Position numbers and translations under genes: made by a program. The notes below the pieces were generated by a model. The model saw nothing but the letters and a program-made list of their open reading frames with translations, was not told where the DNA came from and did no database searches. A DNA stretch of 64,000 nucleotides from Candidatus Omnitrophota bacterium (lineage in GTDB: Bacteria > Omnitrophota > Omnitrophia > Omnitrophales > Aquincolibacteriaceae), in contig DAOSLF010000008.1 of assembly GCA_035368605.1 (NCBI GenBank), positions 1,964-65,963 of the forward strand, read 5' to 3'. Positions 33,808 to 53,730 of the stretch are shown here, one piece after another. The first letter of the stretch is position 1. Every line of letters begins with the position of its first letter.

Positions 33808-35719
33808 GGTTTCCTTCGAGCGTCAGGTATTCCTGAATACCGACGGCATGGTTGAGAGCCGCTTTCGCGGAGTAATAATCCTTAAGGGCCTTATGCAGAT
33901 CCCCCCGCTCCCGGACAAGATCGGATTCGGCCTGCATGTACTCGGAAATTTCGACCTCTTTGCGCTCAAGCCGGTGCCTCGCAAGATCACGGAGGCGTTC
34001 CCTCCACTTCGCGCGTTTGGTATTCGACCGCACCTGGATCAGGGCCTTCTGATAATCATAAAACGCCTGCTTCACGTCCTGCAGGACCTGCTTTTCGGCC
34101 TTTTCAAGTTCCACGACCTGGTTCAGCTTGTCGACCTCTGCCTGTTTGACGTTCACATAAGCGTCGAGGCCGTCCAGGATGCCGATCGTAAGATTGTTCT
34201 TCCGGAGGCTCGTTCCCTGCCCCGCGGCGTACTGGGTGATCGACGGCGCCTTCTTGTCCTTATCGTAAGTATAACTGACCTTGTTACCCCCAACGTTCCA
34301 GTTCAGCTCCAGCATCAGACGCCATTCACGTTTGAGAACCGGATCATCCTTGTAGCCTGCGCCGTAAACTTCCCCGATATCATCCGTCCACGCTTCACCA
34401 AGCGCTCCGGCTTCCCAGGTCAAAAAAGCCTTCGGAAGGAACTCCCCCCAGCGGACCCGTTCGCCAAGCCGGGTCGCCTGGAGTTTTGCGGCTTCAACCT
34501 GGAGTTCCGGGCGGTTCGCATAGGAAAGATCCACGACCTTCGGAAGCTCCGGCGTGATCTCATCTCCCAGGGATCTCGCCACGCTGACCCAGTCCGAAGC
34601 CTTGTCGCCGGGCTCTCCCTCGACCGATGTCGCTTTTTCAAGAATGGCGCTGAGGTCATAGGTCTTGACCAGCTGGACGGTATCCTCGACCGAAAGGTCC
34701 AGATAGCGCTGCATGTCGAGCTTCGCGATCTCGAATTCCTGCCTGGCGGTCTCAAGATCGAACTGCATTTGCGAGTAAAGCGACTGCACATTCAGCCGCT
34801 CGATCTCCGAGATCAGGTTCTCCCTGAATTTCTCCTCGGACATGTCGGCATAACGTTTCATCTGCGCCACGGCCGCCTCATGTTCGCTGATGGTCTGAAG
34901 GGTCCTCTGGTACTCGAAATAGGCGCGCGAAAGATCGAAGATGAGGTCGGAAATGATCTTGTCGTACTGCTTTTGGGAAGCTTCCAGGCTGGATTTCTCC
35001 TGGAGGAACGTGTTCCAGAGGATACCGCCGTTGAAAAGCGGCTGCCGGAGCGAAAAACGCCAATCCCTGCCCGTAAAGGCATCACCGCTGAGCGTTCCGA
35101 CCCGCGCATTGGTCGAAACGGACATTTCCGGGAAAAGTTTCCGGAAAGCGTAAAGCACGCGCCGGTTGTAAAGATTGATACTCTCATGTGTGGCGCGGGC
35201 CTGGGAATGGACCGATTTCGCGCGAAGAATGAGGCTGCTCAGGTCCTTGGGACCGCTCCGGAGGAAAGCGTCTTTTTGCTGGACCTTGATCGGCGTGATC
35301 GCGGCACGGATGTACATGCGATCAAGATAAGGCATCTGTTTTTGACGTTCGTCGCGCATGGCACGCACCTGCTGTTTCAAGGCATCGTTCATGGCCGCGT
35401 CAATAGATTCAGCCCTGACCTTTTCACTCTGGACGGAAGAAGGTTCCCGTCCCCGGAATTTCCGGGATTTTTTCTTCTGCGGCTCTTGCTCCGCTCGCAC
35501 GTCTTTCTTTCTGACGGCCTTGATCTCGTTGACCGCCGGCGGCGTCACGATCCCCGGCGCAAGGACCAACGCGGAAGTATCCTTGGAGAGTCCGGCGTCC
35601 TGGACCTGTGAAATACCGGGCTGCGGGGTGCCGCCGGCATCGTTCTGGGCATAGGCAATGGGGCAAAGGTTCGCCAGAAAGACAACGATGCCCGCAGATA
35701 TAAAAAGTCTGTTTTTCAT
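33794..35719 (-). CDS. outer-membrane efflux protein (TolC-like OMF) with N-terminal extension
   Basis: Signal peptide. Two OEP repeats with coiled-coil segments. 641 aa, with an additional approximately 150-aa N-terminal region. First gene of the operon, overlapping the MFP gene by 14 bp. Confidence 0.8.
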   Translation of the reverse strand: MKNRLFISAGIVVFLANLCPIAYAQNDAGGTPQPGISQVQDAGLSKDTSALVLAPGIVTPPAVNEIKAVRKKDVRAEQEPQKKKSRKFRGREPSSVQSEKVRAESIDAAMNDALKQQVRAMRDERQKQMPYLDRMYIRAAITPIKVQQKDAFLRSGPKDLSSLILRAKSVHSQARATHESINLYNRRVLYAFRKLFPEMSVSTNARVGTLSGDAFTGRDWRFSLRQPLFNGGILWNTFLQEKSSLEASQKQYDKIISDLIFDLSRAYFEYQRTLQTISEHEAAVAQMKRYADMSEEKFRENLISEIERLNVQSLYSQMQFDLETARQEFEIAKLDMQRYLDLSVEDTVQLVKTYDLSAILEKATSVEGEPGDKASDWVSVARSLGDEITPELPKVVDLSYANRPELQVEAAKLQATRLGERVRWGEFLPKAFLTWEAGALGEAWTDDIGEVYGAGYKDDPVLKREWRLMLELNWNVGGNKVSYTYDKDKKAPSITQYAAGQGTSLRKNNLTIGILDGLDAYVNVKQAEVDKLNQVVELEKAEKQVLQDVKQAFYDYQKALIQVRSNTKRAKWRERLRDLARHRLERKEVEISEYMQAESDLVRERGDLHKALKDYYSAKAALNHAVGIQEYLTLEGNHGPR

Positions 35720-35829
35720 AAGTTTATGACGGGGCGCATTTTATCATTTAAAAATACACTTTGCACGGACGTTATTCTATCGACCGCCGGGGAACGTGAC
35801 TTGATGGAAAATTCCGCGCTTTGTCCCGT

Positions 35830-36327
35830 TTATTCCGGCATCTTGCGATACCACCCGTCCAAGGGCTCCGAGTCGCAGGCCCCGGAAGGGAGATCATAGA
35901 CATTGCCGCGGCGGTCGGGGGTTCCCGCCGGCACCAGACACACTGTCCGGACACTCCGCTTGTCCGAAGCCGCGATCACCGTTGCGGGCACGTCCTTGTT
36001 ATATGAAATATCCGCGTTCCTCGCGGGGAAGGTATAGGTCTTTTCGAACTGGTCGCGGTCGTAACAACCGTTCCCGATGATTGCCTCCCCGATCACCCCT
36101 TCCGAGTCGAGATGGCCCCACTTCGTTCCGGCGGGAAGGACACCTCCGTGCTCCTGGACGTAGATACGCAGGCAGTAGGACATGGCGCGCAACCCGGCGA
36201 TCGCGCTATCCGCCCGCTTCTGATCGGCGCCTTTCCGGAAATTCGGGAGCGCGAGCGAAGCCCCGATGGCAATGATGATGACCACCACGATCAGCTCCAG
36301 AAGTGTCAAACCGTTCTTACGCGTCAT
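35830..36327 (-). CDS. prepilin-type N-terminal cleavage/methylation domain protein (GspH/PilE-like pseudopilin)
   Basis: MTRKNG|LTLLELIVVVIIIAIGASLALPNF class III signal with Glu5. 165 aa. Last gene of minor pseudopilin module 1. Confidence 0.7.
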   Translation of the reverse strand: MTRKNGLTLLELIVVVIIIAIGASLALPNFRKGADQKRADSAIAGLRAMSYCLRIYVQEHGGVLPAGTKWGHLDSEGVIGEAIIGNGCYDRDQFEKTYTFPARNADISYNKDVPATVIAASDKRSVRTVCLVPAGTPDRRGNVYDLPSGACDSEPLDGWYRKMPE

Positions 36328-39300
36328 ATCCTGTTCCTTTCACCGGTTCCTCCCGGAAATCCCTTCGGACAATCGAAAAAAGCAACATGCCCGACTTATA
36401 CGGCAAAGGCGGCGGGTTAGTCCTTAGTTTATCATTGAAAGAGTAGTCCCGGACCGGTGCGGTGTAGTACGGAGCCTCTGGCGCCGCGGCTCTGCTCCAG
36501 TAATAATATGTGGTCCCAAAAAAAGCCGGCGTTCCGTCGGAGCGCTTCATCTCTTCAGAATCCCATCCTGAGACAAGGCTTCCCCGAAAATGGAGCGTCG
36601 CCCTAGTGTCATCCGCGGGAGAATTGGGTGTTCCCTTCGTGTCATACCATAACTCCTGGAAATTGATCAGATTTTCCAGCCCGCCGCTGTACTTGGCTTC
36701 CCAAAGAGGCCCCTGAGCTTTCCATGTGTAACGGAGCTTCGGGAAATACGGAAAATAGTTCTGATCACGATCGGGGCAAAGTCCACTTCCAAGCCAGGAA
36801 GGGGACTCCTCGTTATCCGTCGTGGCAGGATCATCCACTGTCCAGTCGGGAAACTTCGTTAATAAATCCCGGTTGTTGTTTTTATCCGGATTAACATTGT
36901 CATATTTTGCACCGCAAATGCAATGGGAGGTCCGCGCGGACGTTTCCGTCTTCCACTCAGAAACCGAAATCCATCTGCAGGCGGGGACAGTTTTTTCTTC
37001 CGTAGGCGGATCACAGACGTACACGGAAGACGGGGTTTGCGCCGTTTGTTTGTACGACTCGATCCAGTTTTTTACGCAAGCATACTGAAGCGGAGCATCA
37101 ACCTCTCCATACCCCTTCCGGATTCTCCGGAACGTGACCCCGGGATATCCCATACTCGGGAACGGGAGTTCACCGCCGTCGCGTTTGTAGATAATGTATC
37201 CATCATCCACTCCCGCCGCAGTGCTGTTGTCCCGCACAGCTTCCGTAATCGGAATCTTTAGAGGATCCGTGGCTTTAAAATAATCCTGGGGCAGCCGGTA
37301 GGTGTTGACATTTTGAGTACCGGGGATCGGCGGATCAGTGCGACTGGGCGTTGCAGGATAAGGCACAGACGCCGAACTTCTCCGATAATATTCTCTGACA
37401 AGATTATAAGGAACCGTGGTCTTGTCGAGATAGTATTGAAACGTGCTTCCCGCAGCCTCCATGATGGTATTATTACTCTTAAGCCTTTGAACGAGCTCTG
37501 AATCCGGATTAAGGTAGCCGATACCATTCTCGTCATAAACGGAAGCAGGAACCCCCGGTGATTCATAGAAATTAAACTGATCGTCCCCAAAATAAAGGCA
37601 TGGAGTACGGTCAGGCTGTGATTCAACGGGTTCCGTCTTAAGGTCACAGGAGGGCATACTCCAGATCGCGGGTTTCAGCGGTTTCACCAGCTGGCTCGGG
37701 AGATGCCCGGTCACGACCGCCGCGTTCAGGATCGTGTCGGACGCGACACGCGACTCCAGCGTTTGGGCAGCTGTTTCATTATCGGAATTCCAGCTGTTGG
37801 ACAAGACACCAAAACTGTCACTGTAAAGATCGGCCGGCGGCACGTTGCGTTCGTTAGTGGCGCAGGCGCCTGATTTGAGTTCCTCCGCCGAGCAAGCATC
37901 CGTTAAGAGAACACCGTCGGCGTCATAAGGGTAAATGTTGTAATCCCCCTGAACCCAAAGGCGCCCATTCGTTACCACAGAAAGCCCGGATAGCGGAAGT
38001 TCCGCTCCGCCACTGACCTTGACAAGAAGAGGTCCCGCGCTTTCAGCGATCACAGGATAAGCCGGGACTGTCTGAACGTAGATCACAGGTTTGTCGGTTG
38101 AAAAATCCAGCCCGTAACGCTGCCGCATCCTGTTCAGAAAAGTTTTTACGTTGATCTCGATCAACCTGGCGGAACGGCGCAATCGATAGTCGTAAAAATT
38201 TTCTTTCAGATAAACGCCGTTCGCTTCGCTCCCGTCCAACAGCCCACTTGAAAATCCGAGCGAAGAGACCGTGGTCGCACCCGCCTTGTGGATGAACAGC
38301 TTGTAGGTCCTGCAGTCCGCATCGACACACCTGAAGACCAGGCTGGCACAGGTTTGGTATTTATACCGCCGAATCCGCTGGTCCTGCGGGTCATCGCTGT
38401 CGCCATCCCGGTCTTCATCGCCGTTAAGAGCAAGCGGCTCGATCAGCTTGTGAGGAGCCAGGTCTTTCCCCCCCACAGGGAGCGCGTGGCGCGTGACACC
38501 ATGAGAGGGATGGTCCGCGATCATCGCGCTGCGGAGATCCGACTTCTTCGGGAACCCCGTCCAGAAAGGGTTGACCATGGGCGCGGTAGAAACGGGGTTC
38601 GACGCTTCCCATCCCGGCAACAGTTTTCGGGCCTCTGCCCTGGAAGGCCCAATAGCAGCAGAAACGCTCAAGTCATTTCCAACCCCTGACTTGTAAGATT
38701 CGGCGTAGGGAACTTTGGAAGGGAAATCGCAGCTCGCTTCAGTCTTTCGGATCGGCGTGGAGGGAACGGCCGACGAAAGCAACACGTACGGCTTCGTTTC
38801 ACCTGGCTTCACAACCAAGATCGTATGGGCGGTGGCCCCGCCATACTGGACTGAGTTCCGGAACGTGTAAACGAACGGGGGAGCTTCGTCAGCATCATAT
38901 CCGAGAAATCTTTTCGCCGCGGGCTCCCCGTAAACCTCGACCCCTTTCGTCCCCTCAACATAAAAAGGGTGGGACGATTCATCGGTCTTGTAAAAATCCG
39001 GAACCGCCGCGCGGTATTTGTTGTTTTTGAGGAAATAATTCTCCGCAAGCGCAGTCTTGAAATAGAAGTAAATGTTGCCTGCGCTCCGGAGCGCGTAATA
39101 TTCGGTATTGGTGGAATCGTCCGGAGGCATCCTGAGCGTCAGCCTACTTCCGCTGCCGGTCATCAAGTAAACGTTCCCGTTCGAAAAAATCGGCCCCTGG
39201 AGTTCCCAATCCGGGCCCGCCGCGATCTCAAGGTCCGTGTTGTAAAAGACCGCATAATCAAAAAGCCGGCCGGTCCGCACTTGAATCTTCTGGGAATATT

Positions 39301-39808
39301 CCACGGACGTCCGGGTCAACGGATGGTGAAGCCGGATTCGAACCTCATAAAGGCGCTGATTTTCCGAGACCTGGGTCGCCGGATCCACCAGGACCTTGAG
39401 ACTTTGAACCTGAATATGCTGAAGCCCATCGAACCGGTAGTTGCCTCCCTTTTGGGGCTTCAGGAACGGCGAGTCGAACCACGTTTCAAGATTCTTCTGG
39501 AAAAGGACCTTCGACCCTTCCGATTCCTCGTAGACGACCAAGTCTCCCGAAGCGTCCGCCTCTGCGGAAGGGAAGCCGTTGGCCCGGACATAGTCGTTGA
39601 ATACTTTAAAGGTTCGATCGATCACAGCTTCGGCCGCCCACGCAAGCCTGATGCGGTCAGCCGTCCGCTGAATAGTCCGCTGCTGCATCCCCAGGCTTAT
39701 AAAATTCCCCGCGAGTACCAGCGAAATGGCAATCACCAGAAAAAACATCAAGATGATCGCGAACCCCTTCTGATTGTTCCTCATAATCCTTTCATTCCAG
39801 TTCGGCAT
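36317..39808 (-). CDS. giant GspK/PilX-like minor (tip) pseudopilin, paralog 1 (1163 aa)
   Basis: N-terminus QKGFAIILMFFLVIAISLVLAG...RTADRIRLAWAAEAVID is PilX_N/GspK-like (prepilin-like helix lacking Glu5). Shares conserved blocks with the two other giants (FDYAVFYNTDLEIAAGPDWELQGPIFSNGNVYLM, YYALRSAGNIYFYFK, FGVLSNSWN, YSGGLENLINFQE, C-terminal LRTNPPPLP...FRE). Contains DEDRDGDSD. Confidence 0.6.
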   Translation of the reverse strand: MPNWNERIMRNNQKGFAIILMFFLVIAISLVLAGNFISLGMQQRTIQRTADRIRLAWAAEAVIDRTFKVFNDYVRANGFPSAEADASGDLVVYEESEGSKVLFQKNLETWFDSPFLKPQKGGNYRFDGLQHIQVQSLKVLVDPATQVSENQRLYEVRIRLHHPLTRTSVEYSQKIQVRTGRLFDYAVFYNTDLEIAAGPDWELQGPIFSNGNVYLMTGSGSRLTLRMPPDDSTNTEYYALRSAGNIYFYFKTALAENYFLKNNKYRAAVPDFYKTDESSHPFYVEGTKGVEVYGEPAAKRFLGYDADEAPPFVYTFRNSVQYGGATAHTILVVKPGETKPYVLLSSAVPSTPIRKTEASCDFPSKVPYAESYKSGVGNDLSVSAAIGPSRAEARKLLPGWEASNPVSTAPMVNPFWTGFPKKSDLRSAMIADHPSHGVTRHALPVGGKDLAPHKLIEPLALNGDEDRDGDSDDPQDQRIRRYKYQTCASLVFRCVDADCRTYKLFIHKAGATTVSSLGFSSGLLDGSEANGVYLKENFYDYRLRRSARLIEINVKTFLNRMRQRYGLDFSTDKPVIYVQTVPAYPVIAESAGPLLVKVSGGAELPLSGLSVVTNGRLWVQGDYNIYPYDADGVLLTDACSAEELKSGACATNERNVPPADLYSDSFGVLSNSWNSDNETAAQTLESRVASDTILNAAVVTGHLPSQLVKPLKPAIWSMPSCDLKTEPVESQPDRTPCLYFGDDQFNFYESPGVPASVYDENGIGYLNPDSELVQRLKSNNTIMEAAGSTFQYYLDKTTVPYNLVREYYRRSSASVPYPATPSRTDPPIPGTQNVNTYRLPQDYFKATDPLKIPITEAVRDNSTAAGVDDGYIIYKRDGGELPFPSMGYPGVTFRRIRKGYGEVDAPLQYACVKNWIESYKQTAQTPSSVYVCDPPTEEKTVPACRWISVSEWKTETSARTSHCICGAKYDNVNPDKNNNRDLLTKFPDWTVDDPATTDNEESPSWLGSGLCPDRDQNYFPYFPKLRYTWKAQGPLWEAKYSGGLENLINFQELWYDTKGTPNSPADDTRATLHFRGSLVSGWDSEEMKRSDGTPAFFGTTYYYWSRAAAPEAPYYTAPVRDYSFNDKLRTNPPPLPYKSGMLLFSIVRRDFREEPVKGTGYDA

Positions 39809-40553
39809 GCAAAAAAACCGTTTTGGTGATCCCCGCTGTTTTCAGATCTTTTTTTGCGCCAAGCGCCGTCCCGACCGAGCCCCGGGCGCTGAGGCTGACG
39901 GAAACTGTTTTCTTCCCTGGGTCTGTCTTGAAGACGGGATAGACACCTTTGTCTTCGCAAAGATTTTTGGGCAACTCCGCAGCGGTGACACAGGCGTCTC
40001 TAAGACTTTCTTCGTTGTCCATTCCGGCAACCGTCACAGTCCCGTCATTATCCAGATCCGCATCAGCATACGGCGCGAACATCCCGGGGGTTGAAAGCTC
40101 GGTCTCGGTCCATAGACGACCAGCGGCCTCAGCAGCTCCAACCGTGTACACTCTGCGGACCAGCTTCGCCTCGGGAGGCACTCCCGACGCAAGCAGATAT
40201 CCGTACCAGACTTCCTTCGCGCCGGTTCCCGAACCAACCAGCGTACCCATCCAGATCTCTCCCTGTTTATCTTCGGAACGATAGTAGAAAGGACCCTGCA
40301 CCGGACTGTCCGCCGGAATCTCCGTGCCATCGGGATAATGGCTCAAAAACCCTTTCCGGACCCCACCCTGCAACTGCAGCTCAAAATCTCGGAAGATTGC
40401 CAGCAGCTCATTCTGCATCCTGGCACCCTGATCCTGGGCGACCTTGGACCCCGTGACCGAAAGATGCAAGGTGCTCATCGCGAACAACACGCTGCCCAGA
40501 ATGCAAACTGCGATGATAAGCTCCATCAAAGAGAGGCCGTGCGGTTCTTTCAT
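39792..40553 (-). CDS. GspJ/PilW-like minor pseudopilin
   Basis: MKEPHG|LSLMELIIAVCILGSVLFA prepilin signal. 253 aa. Paralog of 50742..51458 (shared VWYGYLLASG / VWYGYKFASG, KGVYPVFK). Confidence 0.65.
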   Translation of the reverse strand: MKEPHGLSLMELIIAVCILGSVLFAMSTLHLSVTGSKVAQDQGARMQNELLAIFRDFELQLQGGVRKGFLSHYPDGTEIPADSPVQGPFYYRSEDKQGEIWMGTLVGSGTGAKEVWYGYLLASGVPPEAKLVRRVYTVGAAEAAGRLWTETELSTPGMFAPYADADLDNDGTVTVAGMDNEESLRDACVTAAELPKNLCEDKGVYPVFKTDPGKKTVSVSLSARGSVGTALGAKKDLKTAGITKTVFLHAELE

Positions 40554-40556
40554 AGA

Positions 40557-40988
40557 TCACCCTGCATAAAAGACCGTGGTAACAGTCTCCTGTTTGTCAC
40601 ATTGAACACAAGGCTTGTTCTCGCCTTCTTTCCACGGATAATCCCACCCGATGCGGATAGTCACTTGCTTGAGGTCGGGATCGGATTCAAGAATCTCCAC
40701 CGTCCGGGTCATCGCGCCATGTTTGAGCTCACGAACCTCCGCGACCGCGCTGGTCCCGGGCTGAAGGCTCCGACCGTTGTCTTTCTTGGCCTCCGCGAGC
40801 ATCTTGTCGATCAAATGGACCGCGACCATTTTTTGCTGCATCGCGGCCGCGGCCCGGCTGACATGGCCCGTCACTCCGAGAACACCGGTGGCAACCACAG
40901 TGATCGCTGTAATGGCTACGAGAATCTCAAGCAGGGAGAACCCGCCCATCCCTTTCGAGTCACTTTGGGCCATTTCATCAGCCTTCAT
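40557..40988 (-). CDS. GspI/PilV-like minor pseudopilin
   Basis: ...SKGMG|GFSLLEILVAITAITVVATGVLG prepilin signal. 143 aa. Paralog of 51462..51917 (shared IGWDYPW motif). Confidence 0.65.
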   Translation of the reverse strand: MKADEMAQSDSKGMGGFSLLEILVAITAITVVATGVLGVTGHVSRAAAAMQQKMVAVHLIDKMLAEAKKDNGRSLQPGTSAVAEVRELKHGAMTRTVEILESDPDLKQVTIRIGWDYPWKEGENKPCVQCDKQETVTTVFYAG

Positions 40989-41044: not shown

Positions 41045-41704
41045 TTATAGATCACACGGATTCCGGGCCGCCGTAAAACGGCGCCCTGAAAAACAGGACG
41101 GCGCCGAAACCAGCAAAAGGGCGCCCTGGCGCTGCAAGGGATTTCCGAACGATACATCCATGCCCCCGGAAAAGAAGAGGTTATCCCCTTCCTTCAGCGT
41201 CACGCCCCTGCCATCCACTTTTCCTTCGAAGCGCCCGCTCAGCGTCTGGAGGAAAACCGCGCCCGTACCGTTCAGGATACTGCCGTCAAACGACTTCCCC
41301 GGATCGACAAGCACCTTCCCGCAAAACAGCTCATCGATGGACGGCGAGAAGGCGATGAACTCGACCCCTTTCGAGGGGAAAGCAATGCGATAAAGCCCTT
41401 TCGGCGTCCCTTGGGAAAAACATTCCGGCAACGAGACTTCCGCCCTCCGGAAGATCCCGCTCACGGCCACCCCGAGCCCTTTCGCGATCATCTCGAGCGT
41501 GGCAATCGAAGGATTCCTGATCCTCCCTTTTTCAACCGCGGTCAGGGTCCTGGGATCGAGCCCGTTCGAACGACGACAGAGTTCCACGCCGCTGAGACCG
41601 CGCTCCTTCCGGAGCTCCAGCACCGACCGGCCCAGGTTGATCCCCGTTCGCCGGGGCTCACCCGACCGACCACCGGTTTTTGTCTGAGGGTTTTTCCGTT
41701 TCAT
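41045..41704 (-). CDS. XRE-family HTH transcriptional regulator with C-terminal cupin domain
   Basis: Start at internal Met 41704 with GGAGG RBS; the upstream 86 codons of the track ORF overlap the neighbouring gene's 3' end and look spurious. HTH_3 segment LGRSVLELRKERGLSGVELCRRSNGLDPRTLTAVEKGR. C-terminal cupin beta-strands. Confidence 0.7.
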   Translation of the reverse strand: MKRKNPQTKTGGRSGEPRRTGINLGRSVLELRKERGLSGVELCRRSNGLDPRTLTAVEKGRIRNPSIATLEMIAKGLGVAVSGIFRRAEVSLPECFSQGTPKGLYRIAFPSKGVEFIAFSPSIDELFCGKVLVDPGKSFDGSILNGTGAVFLQTLSGRFEGKVDGRGVTLKEGDNLFFSGGMDVSFGNPLQRQGALLLVSAPSCFSGRRFTAARNPCDL

Positions 41705-41747
41705 CGTCTTCCCTCCTCTTGCCGTACCCGCCCGCAGGCCGATACGG

Positions 41748-43691
41748 TTATGACGGGTTCTTTTCCAGCAAGATCTTTCCGAGCGTGTAACGCCGGGGCT
41801 TCCCTTCGTTCCGGAAGAACCACACCAGTTTCCCATCCCCTTCCTTCCGCTCGATATCATGGACCGCCGGCGAAAGGCGGACCGTAGATCCGGCGCTGGG
41901 GCGTATTCCGAGCGCGTCCCAACGCAGGGCGCCTTCGATGATATACCCCTGCCCGTCGGCATAGGACGCGGCGGACGCCTTGCCGGTCTTCAGGAACGAT
42001 TCGCCGCCCTGGAACCAGGACCAGGATTCGACTTCCGAACCGTCCGGGGAAGGACGGAATCCGATCTGGTAATCCGCCGCATCTTCCCAGAAGAGCCCAT
42101 CGCCTTCGGGATCCACGTAGAGCTCGAGAAGGTCGTCCCGCCAGAGTTGTTTCCCTGAATGTTTCGCGACGATCTCATCGTCCATCACCTGCGCGACGAA
42201 ATAAAGCGCCTGCTCGTCCCACGCGAACCGGATTTTCGCCGAAAGGTCCCTGGGGCCTCCGAAGGTCCCGTACTCCGTATTCGCTTCGGGCGTGAGCCGG
42301 ATCACGTCACCCGCCGGCCAGTCTTTCAGCATCGCGTCGGGTTTGATCCCCCCCGCGAGATACGGCGCGCGGTAGACCGGAGGGTCCGGCCACGGGAGCT
42401 CCATCGTTCCTTCTCTAAAACCGATTTTTTCGAACGCGCTCCGGACATACGGACTTTTCATCATCCGGTCCCATACGAGACCGCTGCGGTAATTCTCGAT
42501 CATCAGGAGAAGCGGCCCCTGGTCGATCGCGAGCACGCGGTCACTCGCCCAGTTCTTGTCCACGTTCATTGCGTCGGCAAAACCGTAGCGGCCCCACATC
42601 TTTTCGCCGTATTTTTCCCTGATCAGACGGAGACAGGCGATGGATTCCTTCGGCGTGAACACGATTGACGACCCGCAGGCCGTCGGTGCGATCGTCCCGT
42701 CATGCGCGACACCCCACCCGGGCGGCGCGCCGTACGCCTTGTAGCCGCCCGGACCGTCGGACGCGCTCAACCCCCAGAACCCCTGCGCGTAGGTCCGGTA
42801 GGTCCCGGCATTGTCCTCGCAAAAAGCCTTGTTGGCGAGCGTCGCATTGACGGAATTCCTGAAATAATCGGCATATCCGTCATGTTTGTTCCGGAGGTCG
42901 AGCCAGACATGCGGGAACTGATGCGTGAAAAGCGGCGGCATCTGGATCACGCGGTAATCCCGGTAACTCCCTGCCGGACGGAGAATTTCTTTCCAGACCG
43001 AAGGATCGAGCGGATGACCGCTCGCGGGCGCGCCGATCGCGAGCACGTAAAGCAGGAGCGACTCGTCAAAATGGTCCCACCGATTCCGGCTGAAACCCGT
43101 CTCCGGCGTCCAGGCCAGCGCGAACGTCCTGCCGCCGTTCAGCATCCACGGAAAATCGATCCGCTCGTAGATCGCCTTCACGAGCCCCCGGATCCCGGGA
43201 TCGTCGTAATACTCCGCCGCAAAAAGGGCACCCGCGAGAAGAAGCGCCGTGTCGATCGGGGAAAGTTCGGAATTGTTCACGCGCCGGCCGGTCCCGGGAT
43301 CGAGAAAATGGTAGAAAAACCCTTTATGCTGAGGCGCATCGTTCAGAAGGAACTCAAGGGTCCGCCGGGTGAGTTCACGCGCCTTGCCGCGGTCCATCCA
43401 TCCGCGCTCGACACCAACGGGATAGGCGGTCAGCGCAAACCCGACACCGGCAATACTTGCCGGCGCCTGCGAAAGGCCCTTGTCCCGGTGCGCCGCGGCA
43501 TCCGGTACGAGGCCGTTATAGGGATTCACCTGTTCCCGGAAGAACCGGAAAGACCTCTCCTGGACTTCGTTCAGGAATTCCTCATCGGCCGGAGCGATCT
43601 CCGCCGCCCGGGCCAACGGGCAAAGACATGACATCATAGCGACCCAGACTGCCGTCATGAGGATCCTGCATTCAGAACACTGAAAACGCAT
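41748..43691 (-). CDS. secreted (alpha/alpha)6-type glycoside hydrolase resembling the beta-1,2-glucanase/DUF3131 (GH144-like) family, with C-terminal CBM9-like domain
   Basis: Signal peptide MRFQCSECRILMTAVWVAMMSCLCPLARA (start 43691, AAGGA RBS). Six-hairpin glycosidase-like core. C-terminal 180 aa matches the CBM9 pattern (FAWDEQALYFVAQVMDDEIV...WRDDLLELYVDPEG...GYIIEGALRWDALG). Confidence 0.55.
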   Translation of the reverse strand: MRFQCSECRILMTAVWVAMMSCLCPLARAAEIAPADEEFLNEVQERSFRFFREQVNPYNGLVPDAAAHRDKGLSQAPASIAGVGFALTAYPVGVERGWMDRGKARELTRRTLEFLLNDAPQHKGFFYHFLDPGTGRRVNNSELSPIDTALLLAGALFAAEYYDDPGIRGLVKAIYERIDFPWMLNGGRTFALAWTPETGFSRNRWDHFDESLLLYVLAIGAPASGHPLDPSVWKEILRPAGSYRDYRVIQMPPLFTHQFPHVWLDLRNKHDGYADYFRNSVNATLANKAFCEDNAGTYRTYAQGFWGLSASDGPGGYKAYGAPPGWGVAHDGTIAPTACGSSIVFTPKESIACLRLIREKYGEKMWGRYGFADAMNVDKNWASDRVLAIDQGPLLLMIENYRSGLVWDRMMKSPYVRSAFEKIGFREGTMELPWPDPPVYRAPYLAGGIKPDAMLKDWPAGDVIRLTPEANTEYGTFGGPRDLSAKIRFAWDEQALYFVAQVMDDEIVAKHSGKQLWRDDLLELYVDPEGDGLFWEDAADYQIGFRPSPDGSEVESWSWFQGGESFLKTGKASAASYADGQGYIIEGALRWDALGIRPSAGSTVRLSPAVHDIERKEGDGKLVWFFRNEGKPRRYTLGKILLEKNPS

Positions 43692-43725
43692 TGTTCCTTT
43701 CATAAAGAAAACAAGGTTGTGAACG

Positions 43726-46700
43726 TTATACCGCGCTCTCGTCTCTGATACCAAGGGGCTCGCCGCTACGCGGGTCCAGTTCCCTGAAGGTTTTCCGCGT
43801 CAGCGCGTAAACGGACGGCGTTCCCGGCGGCGGACTGGTCCTGAGAGTTTCATTATAAAAAGCCTTCCGGGCCGGCGCGCAATAATAGGCGGGTTTCCAA
43901 AAAGCGGGCCGCACTGTTTCCGAAGTGTCCTCCGGGAAAACGGTCGTTGAGATCCGGAGTTCTCTGGCATGCCAAGGAGCCGTCTGGACCCCGTAAAACC
44001 GGATCGTCTGCTGCCAGTCGACAACCTCCTTCTCGTTCACCAGTGAAATCTTTCCCCATTGTTCCTGGTAATTGATCAGGTTTTCAAGCCCTCCGCTGTA
44101 CCGGGCGACATAAAGCGGAACGTAGCGCCCGTGATAATATCTGATCCCTGAAGGCTCATAGCGTAACGATGGACCTGCTCCGCCCGTACAGGTGTAGGTA
44201 CATACCGGAGCCTCCGTTTCGCTGCCTCCCGTGCAAATGTTTTTACACACATAATCAGGCGTTGTCGAGATATAGTTAAGAGAAGGACCCGTGAGCCAAT
44301 CCGGCATAATCACATTGAAGTAAACACCACCCGTCAGCGGCACTCCCCTGACTTCGCACTCCGGCGGAACGGGCTGATAGGTCCGCCATTCCCAATCCCT
44401 TCCCGGACATCGCATCATGCTGTCGGTATTGACAGGGATATCCCGGTCAGGAAGCACATTCCCCGAAAAAACCACGTTCCGGTAACTTACGGCAGCGGAA
44501 CTGAACCCCGTATCGGCCGGATGGCATATCCTGTTCGTGGAAAAATCGCAGCGCCCGTCCGTGTTTTTTTTATCGCAACAGACAAGACTCCACTCGTTGG
44601 CGTCATTCTTTCTCGCAACCGGAATGGTATAAGCCACGCGAAATCCCCTGAGAATCTCCTTCTCGTCCGGGGTCAGCTGATCCCAGCGGGTAACGGTCCT
44701 CGTGACAATGATATTGTGCAAAAGTTTCTGGAGGGCCGTGCCATCAGGATCGGGCAGCGGCGGCGCCGAATCATCGGGGGAACTCCAGGCGAGTCCCCAG
44801 GGGCTTCCGGCGCCCCACCGGTCCTTTTGCGCGGTGTAGGACTGCTCCTTTTCCGGGGCCGAGAGACCCCTGACGCCGTTCGTGTTGTAATAGGTCCCGT
44901 CGTATTCCTTCCAGGCCGTGTTGTAGATCCGCTTGAAAAGCATCAGCGTCGGAACATAAAAAATACCCGTCGCCGTATCCTTCCGCAATTCACAATCAGA
45001 CCAATCAACCGGGTTCCCGGACGCGTCCAGCCCCGCCGGGCAGCGGGCACCGGAAACGGCAGGAACATGGCTCGCCCCTGTTTGGGAATACCAGCCGCTG
45101 GCATCAGGCGGCAGATCTTTCACGAAGGACCGCCGCGCCCACTGGAAACATTCTTCCGGATGATCCGCATCGCACCTCGGGAACGTTTCTTCAAGCTGGG
45201 AAGGCACAAACCCCGTCACGACGGCGGTATTGACCATCGAGGATCCGGCAACGGGCCGTTTGTCTAAAGATGTCGCCCCGCCGTAAGAATCCTTCCAGCT
45301 GTTCGAAAGTATCCCGAAACTGTCGCTGAAAACCGCAGCCGGCGGAAAAACACAGGCGCGTTGGTCCCAATCCCCGGCGGAGCAGGTCCCTCCGGAGCGG
45401 GTTCCGTTCGGGTATTCGTAGGTGTTATAGTCCCCCTGGATCCAGAGACGCCCGTTCGTCACGACCGTGAGTCCCTTCGACAAAAGCTTTCCGCCGTTCG
45501 TCAGCCTGACAAGCGCCACCTTGTTTTCTCCGCTGGCCTCATAGGGACCTTCCGGAACACCGACGTACACAAGACACCCTGTGCCGCTGGTATCGCATTC
45601 AAACCCCGACAACACGGTATTCAGATTCGCAACATCGATCGTCACTGTGGGGAATTCCCCGCCCATCCGGTAATCGTAGAGCATGCCGATCGACGCAAAG
45701 GCACCGGCCGCAATCGCGCTACCCGCCCGGTCCGTGGCGGCAATGGGTTCGGTGTCTGTCGTGCAACTCAGCCGGAGATCCGCCATGGAGGCCAGCTTCT
45801 GTTTTCTGACCTCAACCTTTTCACCCTCGACCAACGGATCGATCAGGGTGTGAATTCCGTTCGGGGCGTTCGGATCCCCGACGGGGATGGCTCTTGACGT
45901 CACGCCCTCAACCGTATCCGCGACATACATTCCCGTCGGATCGGAAGCCGGAGCCCCCCAACGGTTGTTCAACACCTCTTTCTGGCTACCTTCCCCCGGA
46001 TTTTCAGACTTGGGATCGGCAGCCGTCCAGCCCGCAAGCCGCTTCGGCGGTTGCAGTCCCACCGGATCATAAACCGGCGTCGCATTCATAAAATCTCCGG
46101 CTTTTCCGTAATTCCCTGCGTCCAAATAGTAGGACGCGGCGGCGTCAGGCGGCCACAAAGGATATTGATTCAGAAAGTAATGGTGACTCAGGAACTTGAG
46201 GGGGATGTCATCTTTACCCGGGATCTGAAGAACGATATGCGGCTCATCATACAAAAAACTGGAGAACCGGATCTCGTTCCGCGGATAGTAGAACATTGGC
46301 ATGGCCTTTTCGCGGGTTCTGAACGCGTACGGTTCGAGTTCCATGCTGTCGAGTCCGTCAATGCCTCCGTAGCGGGACATCCTCTCGGCATCATCGGTCC
46401 GCAGGTAATCCGGCGCTCCGTTCACATAGGCTTCGTTCCGGTACCGACCATCTTTCTTGTCCAGAAAATAGTTCCGGGCCAGAAACCGCTTGAAGTAGAA
46501 ATAAATATGGCCCGCGCTCCGGAGCGCATAATAATTCTCCGGATCTTCGCCGATATTCGAGGGAAGGGAAAGCCGCAGTTGACTGCTCGGCCCGGTCATG
46601 AGGTAGATGTTCGCGTTGGAGAAAACAGGCCCCTGGAGATCATAATCGGTGCCCGAAGCGATCTCGAGGTCCGTGTTGTAAAAGGTGCTGTAATCAAAAA

Positions 46701-47235
46701 GTTTCCCGGCGGAAACCCGGACAACCTGGCTAAAGAAACTCGCGGAACCCGTATTGGGATTCGTCAACATGACGCGAATTTCATACTCGCGATAAGCGTC
46801 CGTCGGATTCGACATGGATGAGGAACTTTTGATCTGTCTCACGGACAGCGCAGACTGATCAAGCTGGACTATGACCGAGGGAAAGGGCCATTTGAAATCA
46901 TCGGCAAGACCGCTGAACCATGCCGCGATCTCCGAGGTGAACAAGGGCCCCTCCGTCTGCCCGGGCATGCTGTTCCGGACTTCAAGCGTATCGGCGTCAT
47001 AGTCCGGATACTGGGCGTTCGTTTCGACAAAATCCGAGAACTTTGCGAAAGTGTAATCAATCACGGCCTCCGCGGCCCAGTAAAGACGGATGCGGTCGAT
47101 CGTCCGCTGCGTCGTCAGCTGTTGCTGGCCAAGGCTCAGAAAACTCCCCGTCATGACCGCCACCATCGCGATCACGAGCGCGAGCGTCATGATCATGACA
47201 AAACCTTTTTGTTGTCTTCCACGCCAGTCCATCAT
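43726..47235 (-). CDS. giant GspK/PilX-like minor (tip) pseudopilin, paralog 2 (1169 aa)
   Basis: N-terminus QKGFVMIMTLALVIAMVAVMTGSFLSLGQQQLTTQRTIDRIRLYWAAEAVID. Conserved blocks shared with paralogs 1 and 3 (FDYSTFYNTDLEIASGTDYDLQGPVFSNANIYLM, YYALRSAGHIYFYFK, FGILSNSWK, YSGGLENLINYQE, C-terminal LRTSPPP...FRELDP). Confidence 0.6.
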   Translation of the reverse strand: MMDWRGRQQKGFVMIMTLALVIAMVAVMTGSFLSLGQQQLTTQRTIDRIRLYWAAEAVIDYTFAKFSDFVETNAQYPDYDADTLEVRNSMPGQTEGPLFTSEIAAWFSGLADDFKWPFPSVIVQLDQSALSVRQIKSSSSMSNPTDAYREYEIRVMLTNPNTGSASFFSQVVRVSAGKLFDYSTFYNTDLEIASGTDYDLQGPVFSNANIYLMTGPSSQLRLSLPSNIGEDPENYYALRSAGHIYFYFKRFLARNYFLDKKDGRYRNEAYVNGAPDYLRTDDAERMSRYGGIDGLDSMELEPYAFRTREKAMPMFYYPRNEIRFSSFLYDEPHIVLQIPGKDDIPLKFLSHHYFLNQYPLWPPDAAASYYLDAGNYGKAGDFMNATPVYDPVGLQPPKRLAGWTAADPKSENPGEGSQKEVLNNRWGAPASDPTGMYVADTVEGVTSRAIPVGDPNAPNGIHTLIDPLVEGEKVEVRKQKLASMADLRLSCTTDTEPIAATDRAGSAIAAGAFASIGMLYDYRMGGEFPTVTIDVANLNTVLSGFECDTSGTGCLVYVGVPEGPYEASGENKVALVRLTNGGKLLSKGLTVVTNGRLWIQGDYNTYEYPNGTRSGGTCSAGDWDQRACVFPPAAVFSDSFGILSNSWKDSYGGATSLDKRPVAGSSMVNTAVVTGFVPSQLEETFPRCDADHPEECFQWARRSFVKDLPPDASGWYSQTGASHVPAVSGARCPAGLDASGNPVDWSDCELRKDTATGIFYVPTLMLFKRIYNTAWKEYDGTYYNTNGVRGLSAPEKEQSYTAQKDRWGAGSPWGLAWSSPDDSAPPLPDPDGTALQKLLHNIIVTRTVTRWDQLTPDEKEILRGFRVAYTIPVARKNDANEWSLVCCDKKNTDGRCDFSTNRICHPADTGFSSAAVSYRNVVFSGNVLPDRDIPVNTDSMMRCPGRDWEWRTYQPVPPECEVRGVPLTGGVYFNVIMPDWLTGPSLNYISTTPDYVCKNICTGGSETEAPVCTYTCTGGAGPSLRYEPSGIRYYHGRYVPLYVARYSGGLENLINYQEQWGKISLVNEKEVVDWQQTIRFYGVQTAPWHARELRISTTVFPEDTSETVRPAFWKPAYYCAPARKAFYNETLRTSPPPGTPSVYALTRKTFRELDPRSGEPLGIRDESAV
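47056..47211. repeat. 156-bp direct repeat copy A (5' end of giant paralog 2)
   Basis: Positions 47056..47211 are identical to 50539..50694 except for one mismatch (gcgagcg versus gcaagcg). Encodes the PilX_N-like helix. Confidence 0.85.
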
Positions 47236-50200
47236 TTACGAAACGGTCTCCTCCTGAACCCCGTACGGCTTCCCCGTTTTCGGGTCCAGTTCCCTGAAGC
47301 GCTTGCGGCTGACCGAAAACAGGCTCATCCCGGAACTATCCGGAAGGGGGGGCGGATTAGCGCGAAGGTTTTCGTTAAAATCATAATCCCGGATGGGCGC
47401 AAGATAGTAAGTAGTCCCATAAAAAGCGGGCTCCCCGGTTGTTTTGACCAGCTGCTTCGAATCCCAAATCGCCACAATATTCCCTGAAAAATGAAGTGCA
47501 AACTTGAGATCATCCCTCACATCTTGTGTGCCTCTGTCGTCGTACCATGCTTCCTGAAGATTGATCGTGTTCTCAAGACCGCCGCTGTAGCGCGGTTCCC
47601 AAAGGGCCCCATAAGCTCTCCACGCGTAGTATATTTTGGGATAAGACGAGAAATAGTTATCGGCTTCCTCAGGGCATATTCCCGACCCCAGAAAACCGGC
47701 TGGATTCGTCCAATCTTCAGGATGCCGGTCAAAATCCTGGGGCTCGCCCCCGGGGATGCCTGTCACATGCGGATTGCTTAGCGTCGCTTGGGGATTAGTG
47801 TATACATTCACGGCATCATCACATCGGCATTTCGCCTTCGTCTCCGTAAGACCGGTCCAGTGGGTCTGAGTGGTACAGGTATCCGGAACAACATCCCCCC
47901 CCGGTGTTGTCAGGCATGACTTGGACTGAACATAATAATTCTTAACTTCGCTGTTTTTGATGCACGTGTAATGAACCGGATAATCCGGGCCCGCAGATTT
48001 CCAAAGTTTTCTCCAGTAAACTCCGGGATAATTCGAACCTGCGAATGGCCGGTCGGGGCTTTCCTCCCAATAGAACCGTTGATCCCAAACAGGACCGTCA
48101 GAAACGGTGTCGGTTCCTCTTGTTTCCACAATAGGGAGGGGTTTTGGATCGACCGGATCAAAATATTCTTGCGGCATTCGATGAACGCTGACATCCAGAA
48201 CAGCACCTGGGTTTTCGACACGGGAAGTCTCCACATAATCGGCCGCCCCAAGCAATTTCGTCATGGCGATCGTGGTCGTAGAAACACTTTGAGGGGCAGG
48301 ATGATTGGTCGCCAGGAGAGCGTTAAACTGCGGGCTATTCACCATCATGTTATTTTTGGCTTTGAGCTCCTGGTAGTAATTTCCCGTCCGTTTGAGATTC
48401 CAGATCCCTCGAGAATCGCGCTCAATGTCCTCCCAATGAAAACCATCCGGCGAATAACAAATAGTGGGAGCCCCGTAAAGACACGGGATCGTGTCCGGAT
48501 CAGACGCGCATTGAGCGAGGTTTATAGGCTTCAGCGCAACTGCACCGGGCCTGGTCGCGCAGAGCTCGATCGTTTCGGGATTCGTGTCCCCGCCAGGCCA
48601 AGGCGTGGGCACCGCCTTCACAAGCTGGCTCCGCAGAAAACCCGTAATGACAGCGGCATTCAGGATCACATCTTCCTTCAGGACCCGTGTTCTGTCGGCA
48701 ATCAGCTTCGTTGTCGTATTAATCAGATTTCTTCCGGCGTCTTCAATGCCCATGTTCCAGTTATTGGATAACACTCCAAAACTATCGCTGTAAAGATCGG
48801 CGGAGGGTGGCCTGCATGACGAGTCGGGATTCGCAATATCGGCGAAGGCGCAGCGTTGCCCTGTTTCGGGGTCAGTCACATTATAATCCCCCAGGACCCA
48901 TAATCTCCCGTTCGTCACGACCGACAGCCCTGCCGCAGGCAGTTCCGCCCCGTTGCGGATCCGCACCGCCACCGGCGCCGGTTTCCCGTCTCTCCAGGTG
49001 TCGGGCGATTCCGTGCGGATGTATATTGAAGGGCGGTGCTCCGATGAAAAAGCGATCCCTTCCTCCGACGTAATAGCCCCGAGAAACCGGTGTACGTCTA
49101 TATCCAAAAGGCGCACAGCAGCCCCCAGACGATAATCGTAAAAAGTCCGGAACTCGAGTCCGGAGTTCGGCCAGTCAGCAATAACTCCCGTGGACAGATC
49201 TTTGGTCTTCCAAGAACCGCCGGCCGGATCTTTGATCTTTAGCTGATAACTTCCATCCTTGCAGGAACCGTCGGAATCATCCACCGAGCAGACAAAACGT
49301 ATATTGGCGTACGTTTCGAATTTGTACTTGGCTACCAGGGGAGATTCTCTCCCGTCAAGAGGTTCAATGAGGACATGTGTGTCTAACCGGCCGTCTCCCA
49401 AAGGAAGCGCTTTCCGGGTCACCCCCTGTTTGCGGTCAGCTATCCATAACCCGTGGCCCTCCCCCGGAAATCCGTTCCAGTAAGGATTCACGAAGGGCGG
49501 ATCAGAAACGGGATTTTCAGGCGTCCATTCCTTATGGAGTTTCCGGACACCTGAGCGATCTGACCGGTCAAAGGCCGTGGAAATACTGACCTTTTTATCG
49601 GGGGTGTAGTCCTTGGCATATCCCAGATAAGGAGCATTTCTCAATCTGTGATCGGTGAAGGTCATCGGCGTGGACGGTTTCGAGGCAGACAAAAAATCGA
49701 AGTATTCCGCGACCGCTCCGGTGATCTTCTTGACTTTAATGGTGTGGGACGAAATGCCGCCGTATTCCAATCCATTCGAAAAAGTGTACAGCAGCGGCGG
49801 AGCAGACGTATAGTTAAGGGTCGTCAAAAGGTGGGGCGAGGGATACACCTCGACTCCCCGGAAGGGAGCTCCGGAGCTATAATCGGCACTGTTAAGGGGG
49901 TGGGTCGCCAGGTCTGTCCTGTAGATGCTCTCCTGGACGGCATCCCTGTAGTAGCTGTTTTCCAGAAGATAATTAGGCGCGAGAGTGGTTTTGAAGTAGA
50001 AATAAATATTCCCCGCGCTTCGCAGCGCGTAATACTCGGGGTAACTCACATCATTCGGCATTTTAAACGTCAACGTGGTCCCCTTGCCGTTCATCAGGTA
50101 AACATTCCCGTTTGAAAAAACAGGACCCTGCAGTTCCCAATTGAGCCCGGGCGCGATCTCGAGGTCATCATTGTAAAAAACACCGAAATCAAAGAGCGTT

Positions 50201-51458: not shown

Positions 51459-51461
51459 GGC

Positions 51462-51917
51462 TCACTCCTTGAAAAGAACGGTAACCATGGATTCCTGCTT
51501 GTCGCAGGCACGGCCATCTCCCGAAAGGGCGCAGGAGGTCGTCTGAATCGTCCACGGATAGTCCCAGCCGACCGTCACGCGCACTTCCTTGAGCTCCGTG
51601 GACGACGGTTCCGGATAGACCCCCGTCACGGACATCACGGCGTTCTTCAGCGTCTTGAGGACCTCAGCGTCCTTGATCTCGACCATTGTCACGGTCCCCG
51701 GCGCCACGGTCGCCGTGACCGTCTGGCCGTCCGAGGCCTTGATCTCCGCCAGCTTCCTGTCGATCAGCTGGGCCGCCGCGATCCGCTGTTGCATAAGCAT
51801 GGATGACCGCTTGGTATGGATCGTCGTCCCCAGGAAACCCGCCGCCATCACGCTGATGACCACGACCGCGATCACGACCTCGAGCATCGAAAAACCGCAC
51901 GCTTGCGCTTTTCTCAT
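51462..51917 (-). CDS. GspI/PilV-like minor pseudopilin (module 2)
   Basis: MRKAQACG|FSMLEVVIAVVVISVMAAGFLG prepilin signal. 151 aa. Confidence 0.65.
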   Translation of the reverse strand: MRKAQACGFSMLEVVIAVVVISVMAAGFLGTTIHTKRSSMLMQQRIAAAQLIDRKLAEIKASDGQTVTATVAPGTVTMVEIKDAEVLKTLKNAVMSVTGVYPEPSSTELKEVRVTVGWDYPWTIQTTSCALSGDGRACDKQESMVTVLFKE

Positions 51918-53262: not shown

Positions 53263-53273
53263 GTTAGCCCGGG

Positions 53274-53708: not shown

Positions 53709-53730
53709 AGCGGGCTCCCTTTCGTCCGAA

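Follow-up and report, generated by a model that had tools for sequence, protein, structure and literature searches.

An exported GH144-type hydrolase and its XRE-cupin regulator at the probable head of a conserved efflux block in Omnitrophota

Introduction

The closest described relatives of the enzyme treated here are two endo-beta-1,2-glucanases, XcSGL from Xanthomonas (XCC2207, PDB entry 8XUL) and CpSGL (Cpin_6279, 5GZH/5GZK). Both are classed as members of glycoside hydrolase family 144 (GH144) in a study that also names the functional and clan residues, and in which 8XUL is the E239Q mutant of XcSGL (PMC12102758). The hydrolase in question is encoded at 41748..43691 in a stretch of 64,000 nucleotides from a Candidatus Omnitrophota bacterium (contig DAOSLF010000008.1), hereafter the window, and is followed by a gene for a regulator with an XRE-type helix-turn-helix (HTH) and a cupin domain (41045..41704). 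Coordinates given without the name of a locus are positions in the window, and all features located in this way lie on the minus strand (-), as do nearly all real genes of the window. The hydrolase belongs to the same Pfam family as XcSGL and CpSGL and shares with them the (alpha/alpha)6 barrel, the acid Glu, an acidic base candidate, the clan Phe and Tyr, and the N-terminal signal peptide. It additionally carries a C-terminal domain resembling carbohydrate-binding module (CBM) family 9, whereas XcSGL and CpSGL are single-domain enzymes, the tail of XcSGL being disordered (PMC12102758). The genomic partners also differ from those of CpSGL, as they are a regulator and an efflux pump of the resistance-nodulation-division (RND) type. 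The CpSGL gene itself adjoins genes for the utilisation of beta-1,2-glucan.

The remaining parts of the locus also have described counterparts. Pumps of the MdtABC/MuxABC type are encoded, as here, by a co-oriented string of genes for an outer membrane efflux protein (OEP), a membrane fusion protein (MFP), and two tandem AcrB-family permeases. The permeases of the window match the MdtB/MdtC models weakly, all of them far below the equivalog cutoffs, and we know of no description of a conserved coupling between a pump of this type and a glycoside hydrolase. The regulator has the same two-domain architecture as 1Y9Q from Vibrio cholerae, and the model of the Escherichia coli regulator PuuR (NF007408) matches weakly over its HTH domain. 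Its family differs from these in that it was limited to Omnitrophota in this search, lacks the conserved His cluster of cupins, and is encoded head-to-tail between the hydrolase gene and the efflux operon. The predicted fold of the hydrolase tail matches CBM9 from Caldicellulosiruptor (7NWN) and CBM9-2 from Thermotoga maritima, which sits on a GH10 xylanase, whereas the Omnitrophota tail sits on a GH144 domain.

Omnitrophota are uncultivated, mostly ultra-small bacteria with suspected parasitic or predatory lifestyles. Two preprints describe giant genes of this phylum flanked by loci resembling type II secretion systems (T2SS) and by glycosyl hydrolases, and read them as machinery directed at the cell wall of prey (10.1101/2023.11.21.568195; 10.64898/2026.06.07.730766), and Seymour et al. 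regard pili of the type IV and Tad classes as markers of symbiosis in Omnitrophota. GH144 is mentioned neither in the two preprints nor by Seymour et al., and a full-text literature search found no paper linking Omnitrophota with GH144. The present analysis gives one Omnitrophota hydrolase a precise identity, of the GH144 type with a CBM9-like tail, and shows that its most deeply conserved associations are with a dedicated regulator of the XRE-cupin type and with an RND pump rather than with pilus genes. The best explanation of the whole, to which we assign a probability of roughly 0.6, is that an exported GH144 enzyme and its regulator head a phylum-wide efflux block, and that the pseudopilin modules now flanking the pair were inserted later. 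This mainly corrects a functional reading and involves known families (GH144, CBM9, and XRE-cupin) rather than a new kind of system. Beta-1,2-glucans come mainly from Gram-negative bacteria, as periplasmic or cyclic glucans, and a conserved exported glucanase is therefore a testable lead to the food or target of these organisms.

The GH144 hydrolase and its CBM9-like tail

The open reading frame (ORF) of the hydrolase spans 41748..43754, and the ATG at 43691, with a Shine-Dalgarno-like AAAGGA 6 nt 5' of it, was chosen as the start of a protein of 647 aa, whose coordinates (41748..43691) include the stop codon. Read from this start, residues 1-29 (43605..43691) constitute a Sec-type signal peptide, MRFQCSECRILMTAVWVAMMSCLCPLARA followed by AEIAP, with a charged, a hydrophobic, and an A-x-A region. 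The n-, h-, and c-regions, as read by eye, consist of Arg2 and Arg9, a hydrophobic core of 15 residues, and the motif ARA before Ala, so that cleavage is predicted between ARA and AE. A signal peptide of the same type is found at the N-terminus of all the orthologs inspected (22/22), none of these 22 has a conserved lipobox Cys, and the Pfam search found no prepilin N_methyl motif in the hydrolase. The alternative starts proposed by gene callers are later, giving proteins of 622-636 aa, and are less likely because the signal peptide would be lost. The enzyme is predicted to be exported by the Sec pathway with a standard cleavable signal peptide.

The catalytic domain comprises residues 30-432 (42396..43604). 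An earlier note on this DNA, made from the sequence alone, had described the protein as a secreted, beta-1,2-glucanase-like (alpha/alpha)6 glycoside hydrolase with a CBM9-like tail, and the profile searches for both domains, together with the signal peptide, bear this description out. The match to Pfam PF10091 (Glycoamylase) reaches 6.1e-69 and 232 bits, with a cutoff of 27, over residues 204-414. Of the proteins with a solved structure, XcSGL is the closest in sequence (8xul, 1e-78), the next ones being 'putative glucoamylases' from Bacteroides and CpSGL (5gzh, 1.8e-48), whereas the match to PgSGL3 of GH194 is far weaker (2.5e-9). A profile built from 23 orthologs separates the two families in the same way, with 3e-106 for GH144 against 4e-16 for the sister family. 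No NCBIfam model matches the hydrolase.

The functional residues can be placed by alignment to CpSGL and XcSGL. In the profile alignment, E210 falls on the general acid (CpSGL E211, XcSGL E239) and D147 on the base candidate (CpSGL E142). The clan Phe is represented by F255 (CpSGL F268, XcSGL F286) and the clan Tyr by Y317 (CpSGL Y330), the alignment to XcSGL Y367 being ambiguous because of an insertion. All four residues are invariant across the 23 orthologs. A Foldseek search with the AlphaFold2 (AF2) model of the hydrolase, which has a mean predicted local distance difference test score (pLDDT) of 79, returned GH144 structures as its top nine matches, with E-values from 2e-26 (8xul) to 6e-17, followed by relatives from GH194, GH192, and GH189. 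As Pfam, the solved-structure matches, the functional residues, and the fold agree, the assignment to GH144 is secure, and the protein appears to be an Omnitrophota-specific ortholog of the GH144 endo-beta-1,2-glucanases. By extension from the family, its substrate would be beta-1,2-glucan.

The C-terminal part of the protein, residues about 462-647 (41751..42308), corresponds to a CBM9-like beta-sandwich. It matches Pfam PF06452 (CBM9_1) at 5.6e-15 and 56 bits (cutoff 23.4) over residues 481-624, and CBM9-2 of Xyn10A from T. maritima (1i82) at 1e-8 in phmmer. Foldseek retrieves the same structure (7e-10, TM-score 0.79) as well as 7nwn (TM-score 0.74). The PWEQDSVE segment of 1I82, which we take to be part of the sugar-binding site, aligns with a W-x-x-D-x-x-E motif of the hydrolase (W517, D520, E523). 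CBM9 modules hold the reducing ends of glycans between two Trp residues. The first of these in 1i82 is matched by W517, and the invariant candidate for the second one, W624, lies outside the aligned range. The combination of GH144 with CBM9 is a phylum-specific fusion of two known domain families.

According to this domain structure, the enzyme would be exported by Sec and then lose its signal peptide by cleavage. The GH144 domain would probably hydrolyse beta-1,2-glucan with inversion, using E210 as the acid and D147 as the candidate base, and the CBM9-like domain would probably tether the enzyme to its glycan, most likely at chain ends.

The XRE-cupin regulator

The gene following the hydrolase encodes a protein of 219 aa with an HTH at residues 24-90 (41435-41635) and a cupin at residues 105-201 (41102-41392). 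Its start at 41704 has GGAGGG 7 nt 5' of it, the lengths of its orthologs range from 199 to 224 aa, and the protein is identical to the database gene call P0121 ('Candidatus Omnitrophica bacterium ADurb.Bin314'). The HTH_3 domain (PF01381) is recognised at 4.2e-9 and 36.7 bits (cutoff 23) and occurs in 27/27 orthologs. Cupin_2 is sub-threshold in the regulator itself (E 0.0086, 16 bits vs 27) and present in 22/27 orthologs, and the profile of the regulator matches the CENP-C cupin in the PDB at 8.5e-5. The AF2 model (pLDDT 86) shows five helices, forming the HTH, and a beta-barrel, and its best Foldseek match is the HTH-cupin regulator 1y9q (1.4e-12), with HppE and RmlC-like cupins also retrieved. 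The reading of this gene in the earlier note, as an XRE-HTH plus cupin regulator, is therefore retained.

The cupin of this family departs from the metal-binding type. No His is invariant across 27 or 30 orthologs, the metal-binding His/Glu motifs are not found in the domain, and the invariant residues are instead F127, C128, G129, K130, G157, E172, G173, and N188. The lack of an invariant His suggests that the barrel is probably not a metal-dependent cupin, and it would probably act as a non-metal ligand domain or as a dimerisation domain. All 159 homologs of the regulator that were retrieved come from Omnitrophota-type sources.

A conserved block in Omnitrophota

The genetic neighbourhood of the pair was compared across 80 genome loci collected with a profile of the hydrolase, supplemented with loci from exact-protein look-ups, onto which the proteins of the window were mapped by tblastn. 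The synteny set consists of 42 distinct loci (designated by L numbers) in which the hydrolase shows 50% identity or more and includes the CBM9 tail, and the denominators below are the loci with enough flank. The HTH-cupin gene lies directly 3' of the hydrolase in 38/39 loci, the OEP gene is kept downstream in 35/36, and an AcrB-type RND permease is present in all 31 of 31. A response-regulator-like gene within 1.5 kb 5' of the hydrolase completes the string in 22/38 loci. Order and strand are the same in every case. The genes are often packed closely: the response regulator frequently adjoins or overlaps the start of the hydrolase, with a gap of 0 nt in L001 and an overlap of 4 nt in L085, and a 4-nt overlap also joins the GH144 and HTH genes of L001, L084, and L097. 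The same gene string can be followed in the gene tables of L001, L003, L084, L085, L095, L096, and L097.

The hydrolase and its regulator are thus the ancestral, conserved head of a phylum-wide block that includes the RND pump. In full, the block reads (CHASE2 kinase)-response regulator-GH144/CBM9-HTH/cupin-OEP-MFP-RND-RND. In the window, its efflux part is a tripartite operon at 25706..35719, recognised by Pfam OEP, HlyD_D23, and ACR_tran and by NCBIfam RND_permease_2, with the OEP gene at 33794-35719, the MFP gene at 32230-33807, and the AcrB-family permeases at 28871-32140 and 25706-28867. The conserved upstream partner in the window is the response regulator (52012..52742), which has an N-terminal domain of unknown type and a REC domain, and which was delimited by tblastn with the orthologs of L001, L003, and L085. 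It is frameshifted here: REC lies in the ORF at 52006-52398 and the N-terminal part in that at 52152-52742, the two frames meeting near 52416-52437. In 3/5 independent assemblies of the same population the gene is intact and encodes 245 aa, suggesting that the frameshift is strain variation or a sequencing error.

In the clade of the window, the block abuts a T2SS-like operon. In the clade with at least 60% identity, to which the window belongs, every locus (12/12) has a GspE, GspF, or secretin gene no more than 10 kb upstream; in the 50-60% clade, 2/17 do. Outside Omnitrophota, hydrolase matches come from Verrucomicrobiota, Elusimicrobiota, and Acidobacteriota, mostly without the tail, and none of them has the neighbours of the block.

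Several other genes were seen upstream of the block in deeper lineages. CHASE2 sensor genes, encoding either a histidine kinase or a GGDEF protein, recur 5' of the response regulator or GH144 (L084:7924-9942, L096:7281-9425, L085:2458-4257). In L084, an ORF of 10,303 aa terminates a few kb ahead of the GH144 block (L084:1-2345), and in L097 the block is preceded by a protein of 2,209 aa with a Pel9A-like beta-helix (L097:1-249). The idea of a giant gene in front of the block in every deeper lineage fits these two loci and was abandoned, as it does not fit L085, L095, or L096.

Insertion of the pseudopilin and giant-protein modules

In the window, the pair is enclosed by two modules that combine GspI-like and GspJ-like minor pseudopilin genes, recognised by N_methyl motifs, with genes for giant proteins of about 1160 aa. 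The upstream module (43726..51917) contains a GspI-like gene (51462-51917), a GspJ-like gene (50742-51458), and two paralogs of 1169 aa (47236-50745 and 43726-47235, the latter being giant paralog 2). The downstream module (35830..40988) contains a GspI-like gene (40557-40988), which matches the gspI model TIGR01707 at 9.5e-9, below the cutoff, a GspJ-like gene (39792-40553), a paralog of 1163 aa (36317-39808), and a pilin gene (35830-36327). As the earlier note had stated, the pair lies between giant paralogs and the second pseudopilin module and is co-oriented with them. Its direct neighbours are giant paralog 2 and the GspI-like/GspJ-like/1163-aa module, and the gaps measure 34, 43, and 56 nt. 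The same layout emerged from separate assemblies of at least four metagenomes and is therefore not an assembly artefact.

The position of the modules becomes clear when the nearest relatives are considered. In L001, L004, L039, and others, four pilin genes are followed by the response regulator, GH144, HTH, a gap of about 80-300 nt, and OEP. A conserved region preceding OEP comes immediately after the HTH gene in L001 and in 13 further close loci. In the window, the sequence homologous to this region (35720-35829) comes directly after the pilin gene at 35830 and not after the HTH gene, and the downstream module, of 5.2 kb, therefore sits between the regulator gene and its usual promoter neighbour. 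On the other side, the upstream module, of 8.3 kb, separates the response regulator from the hydrolase, and none of the 12 nearest species-level loci has it at this place. Only 2/42 loci, L012 and L026, encode a homolog of the 1160-aa proteins at a distance of 10 kb or less from the block, in both cases upstream. Modules flanking both sides of the pair are found only in the species of the window.

The modules are therefore later, lineage-specific insertions around the pair, and the outcome that the earlier note had named as refuting its reading, a hydrolase that is an independently regulated insertion, is turned around by the synteny. Pairwise identities among the three giant paralogs are 35-39%, indicating that their duplications are old. 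The G+C content at third codon positions (GC3), taken as a test of insertion, is 0.60-0.66 in the giant genes, 0.75 in GH144, and 0.63-0.83 in the pilin genes of the same modules. No relatives of giant paralog 2 were found in a metagenome scan, and the spread of the between-modules layout is consequently judged from hydrolase-centred loci only.

Insertions at the same places are seen elsewhere in the clade, although L013 is the only other lineage with pilin genes inside the block. In L013 (L013:12184-15386, by motif scan and ORF reading), a pilin gene of 122 aa lies between GH144 and HTH, and three to four minor-pilin-like genes on the opposite strand lie between HTH and OEP. UvrA, and not a T2SS, is found upstream of the block in this locus, and its pilin genes are unrelated to the modules of the window. 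In L003 (L003:7608-9861), genes for Peptidase_S74 and NosD beta-helix proteins are placed between the response regulator and the hydrolase. Taken together, the window, L013, and L003 suggest that the two junctions are recurrent landing sites in the wider clade with at least 58% identity.

Regulatory elements and operon structure

The non-coding region 5' of OEP, of 110 bp (35720..35829; alignment A3), contains two conserved elements. The first is an extended -10-like sequence, TGATAAAAT, at 35738-35746, which has the form TGnTAAAAT, lies about 25 nt 5' of the OEP start, and is invariant in 15 aligned sequences, indicating a conserved promoter that belongs to the efflux operon itself. The second is a GTCGATA box at 35778-35784, about 50-60 nt upstream of the OEP start. 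The corresponding heptamer, G[CTA]CGATA (hereafter the GYCGATA box), occupies the HTH-OEP interval, or else the final codons of HTH, in 36/36 loci, with a background of 0.24 per kb, and the longer motif has a single exact copy in the 64-kb window. The heptamer is the best candidate for the binding site of the regulator, which would then act as a local controller of the efflux operon. Control of the hydrolase itself by the regulator through this box was also considered and dropped because just 1/37 loci, no more than expected by chance, has the heptamer 5' of the hydrolase. The earlier note had suggested that the cupin could sense a sugar ligand controlling the locus; the only conserved cis element found is that in front of the efflux operon, and not one in front of the hydrolase.

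The hydrolase and the regulator would be co-expressed, as suggested by their tight spacing here and by the 4-nt overlaps of relatives, a sign of translational coupling. In the species of the window, the pair is perhaps also co-expressed with the upstream pseudopilin module, and the regulator would most likely control the efflux operon via the conserved promoter region formed by the GYCGATA box and the extended -10.

Two further sequences resemble transcription signals. A terminator-like hairpin with a T-run, together with promoter-like hexamers, lies at 51951-52003, in the interval that separates the response regulator from the first GspI-like gene, and a TTGAAT-16-TAGAAT promoter-like pair lies at 41013-41040, between the stop of the regulator and the second GspI-like gene. 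The hairpin and the TTGAAT-16-TAGAAT pair are single consensus matches in a scan whose output was close to chance.

Alternative explanations

Some observations weigh against the explanation preferred here, the exported GH144 enzyme and regulator at the head of an efflux block. The operator of an XRE dimer is usually palindromic, which the heptamer is not, and the box could instead form part of the promoter or be recognised by a different factor. The scans for sigma-70 promoters and terminators gave results near chance (14 vs 7.0 +/- 2.8 expected, and 20 vs 21.8), and the operon structure is therefore read from gene spacing alone. Pilin genes recur in or next to the block across the whole clade with at least 58% identity, L013 included, so a functional link to the pseudopilus machine may exist in this clade. 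The AF2 loops 308-343 and 370-386, near the pocket, are of low confidence, and the specificity of the enzyme could differ from that of XcSGL. Finally, genes for the utilisation of beta-1,2-glucan (GH94 phosphorylase, GH3 glucosidase, sugar ABC transporter) were not found nearby, either in the window or in its relatives.

The final location of the enzyme is a separate matter. Release by the neighbouring T2SS-like system and residence in the periplasm are each given somewhat less than even odds: secretion is favoured because of the CBM domain and the clade-specific adjacency of the T2SS, and disfavoured because the efflux linkage is universal and the T2SS is not nearby in deeper lineages. If the enzyme were a T2SS cargo, it would cross the secretin in folded form and act outside the cell, for instance on the beta-1,2-glucans of Gram-negative neighbours or hosts. 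The pul system of Klebsiella, in which the gene of the pullulanase cargo adjoins its secretion operon, provides a precedent, since PulA is likewise a Sec-exported glycanase encoded beside a T2SS-type operon; PulA is a lipoprotein, however, whereas the hydrolase has no lipobox and the T2SS adjacency is confined to one clade. The signal peptide would allow entry into the periplasm, CBM-type domains such as that of the hydrolase are typical of extracellular glycanases, and to our knowledge T2SS substrates carry no recognisable sequence signal. The T2SS-like core is directly upstream throughout the clade with at least 60% identity, both L013 and the window have pilin genes within the block, and Omnitrophota T2SS-like loci have been reported together with glycosyl hydrolases (10.1101/2023.11.21.568195; 10.64898/2026.06.07.730766). 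The rarity of the core within 10 kb in the deeper loci (2/17), where a motif scan of about 22 loci also found no prepilin-like genes near the block, and the universal efflux linkage argue in the other direction, and as a complete reading the T2SS cargo is possible but doubtful. An enzyme of the periplasmic envelope, on the other hand, would trim the cell's own or imported beta-1,2-glucan-like glycans, and would form a stress unit with a pump that expels the products or a toxic compound. The universal, co-oriented GH144-HTH-OEP-MFP-RND-RND string, the response regulator and CHASE2 kinase genes directly upstream in many loci, and the finding of no sugar-uptake genes nearby are consistent with such a unit. 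A CBM9-like domain is nevertheless unusual in periplasmic housekeeping enzymes, and the efflux operon has its own conserved promoter, so that the adjacency may reflect shared regulation only; this reading is considered unlikely.

The place of the gene between the modules, co-oriented and with short gaps, had led the earlier note to suggest an enzyme that works with the filament, binding or degrading glycan together with GspI/J/K-like tip complexes that include the 1160-aa proteins. Co-transcription with the upstream module may indeed occur, judging from the 34-nt gap and from the hairpin and promoter-like site, the only such pair in the neighbourhood, which lie after the response regulator and not after giant paralog 2. 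The near-invariant OEP-MFP-RND-RND linkage and the presence of giant homologs near the gene in so few loci (2/42) do not sustain the suggestion, the signal peptide is an ordinary one with no prepilin motif, and the identity of 35-39% among the giants marks them as old, relocated paralogs and not as co-evolved partners. A filament-associated enzyme is accordingly regarded as extremely improbable. A different doubt concerns the substrate, as the Omnitrophota clade might have kept the fold and diverged towards another beta-glycan. The identity to XcSGL is only about 33% in the structural alignment, the poorly modelled stretches coincide with insertions of XcSGL, and recognition residues vary within the SGL clan, in which the PgSGL4 group is inactive on beta-1,2-glucan (PMC12102758). 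All characterised GH144 members, however, act on beta-1,2-glucans, and the acid, base, and clan residues are all invariant, which makes another substrate quite unlikely. A broader proposal, more improbable again, is that the block is one functional unit of a host- or prey-interaction apparatus of Omnitrophota. Here the glucanase would attack the osmoregulated or cyclic periplasmic beta-1,2-glucans of Gram-negative partners while the co-regulated pump handles products or a toxin; the unit would be wired into the T2SS-like/pseudopilus locus in the clade of the window, with the response regulator-GH144 and HTH-OEP junctions serving as repeated landing sites (window, L013, and L003).

Other genes of the window

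The T2SS-like core upstream of the block (52837..62334) was annotated with Pfam and NCBIfam. It encodes a GspL-like fusion of PilM and PilN, a protein of 218 aa of unknown function, a secretin, a GspE/PilB ATPase with an MshEN domain, GspF, and four pilins.

The proteins of 1163 aa (36317-39808) and 1169 aa (43726-47235) have weak matches to the NCBIfam model of HpsA (5.5e-7 and 2.5e-5), located at residues of about 167-224. HpsA is the large protein of the cyanobacterial hormogonium-polysaccharide locus, which encodes pseudopilins as well, and the matches may hint at the nature of the giant-plus-pseudopilin modules.

No Rfam matches were found near the hydrolase-regulator pair or in the region preceding OEP; the sole ones in the window are two adjacent tRNA genes at 6956-7133.

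The ATPase of the T2SS-like core (56081-57775) scores equally as a T2SS (GspE) and as a type IV pilus (PilB) protein, and its N-terminal MshEN domain, which binds cyclic di-GMP, is recognised at 3.6e-16. A protein with REC, PAS, GGDEF, and EAL domains is encoded at 4286-6448. The presence of both suggests that the T2SS-like machine may be controlled by cyclic di-GMP.

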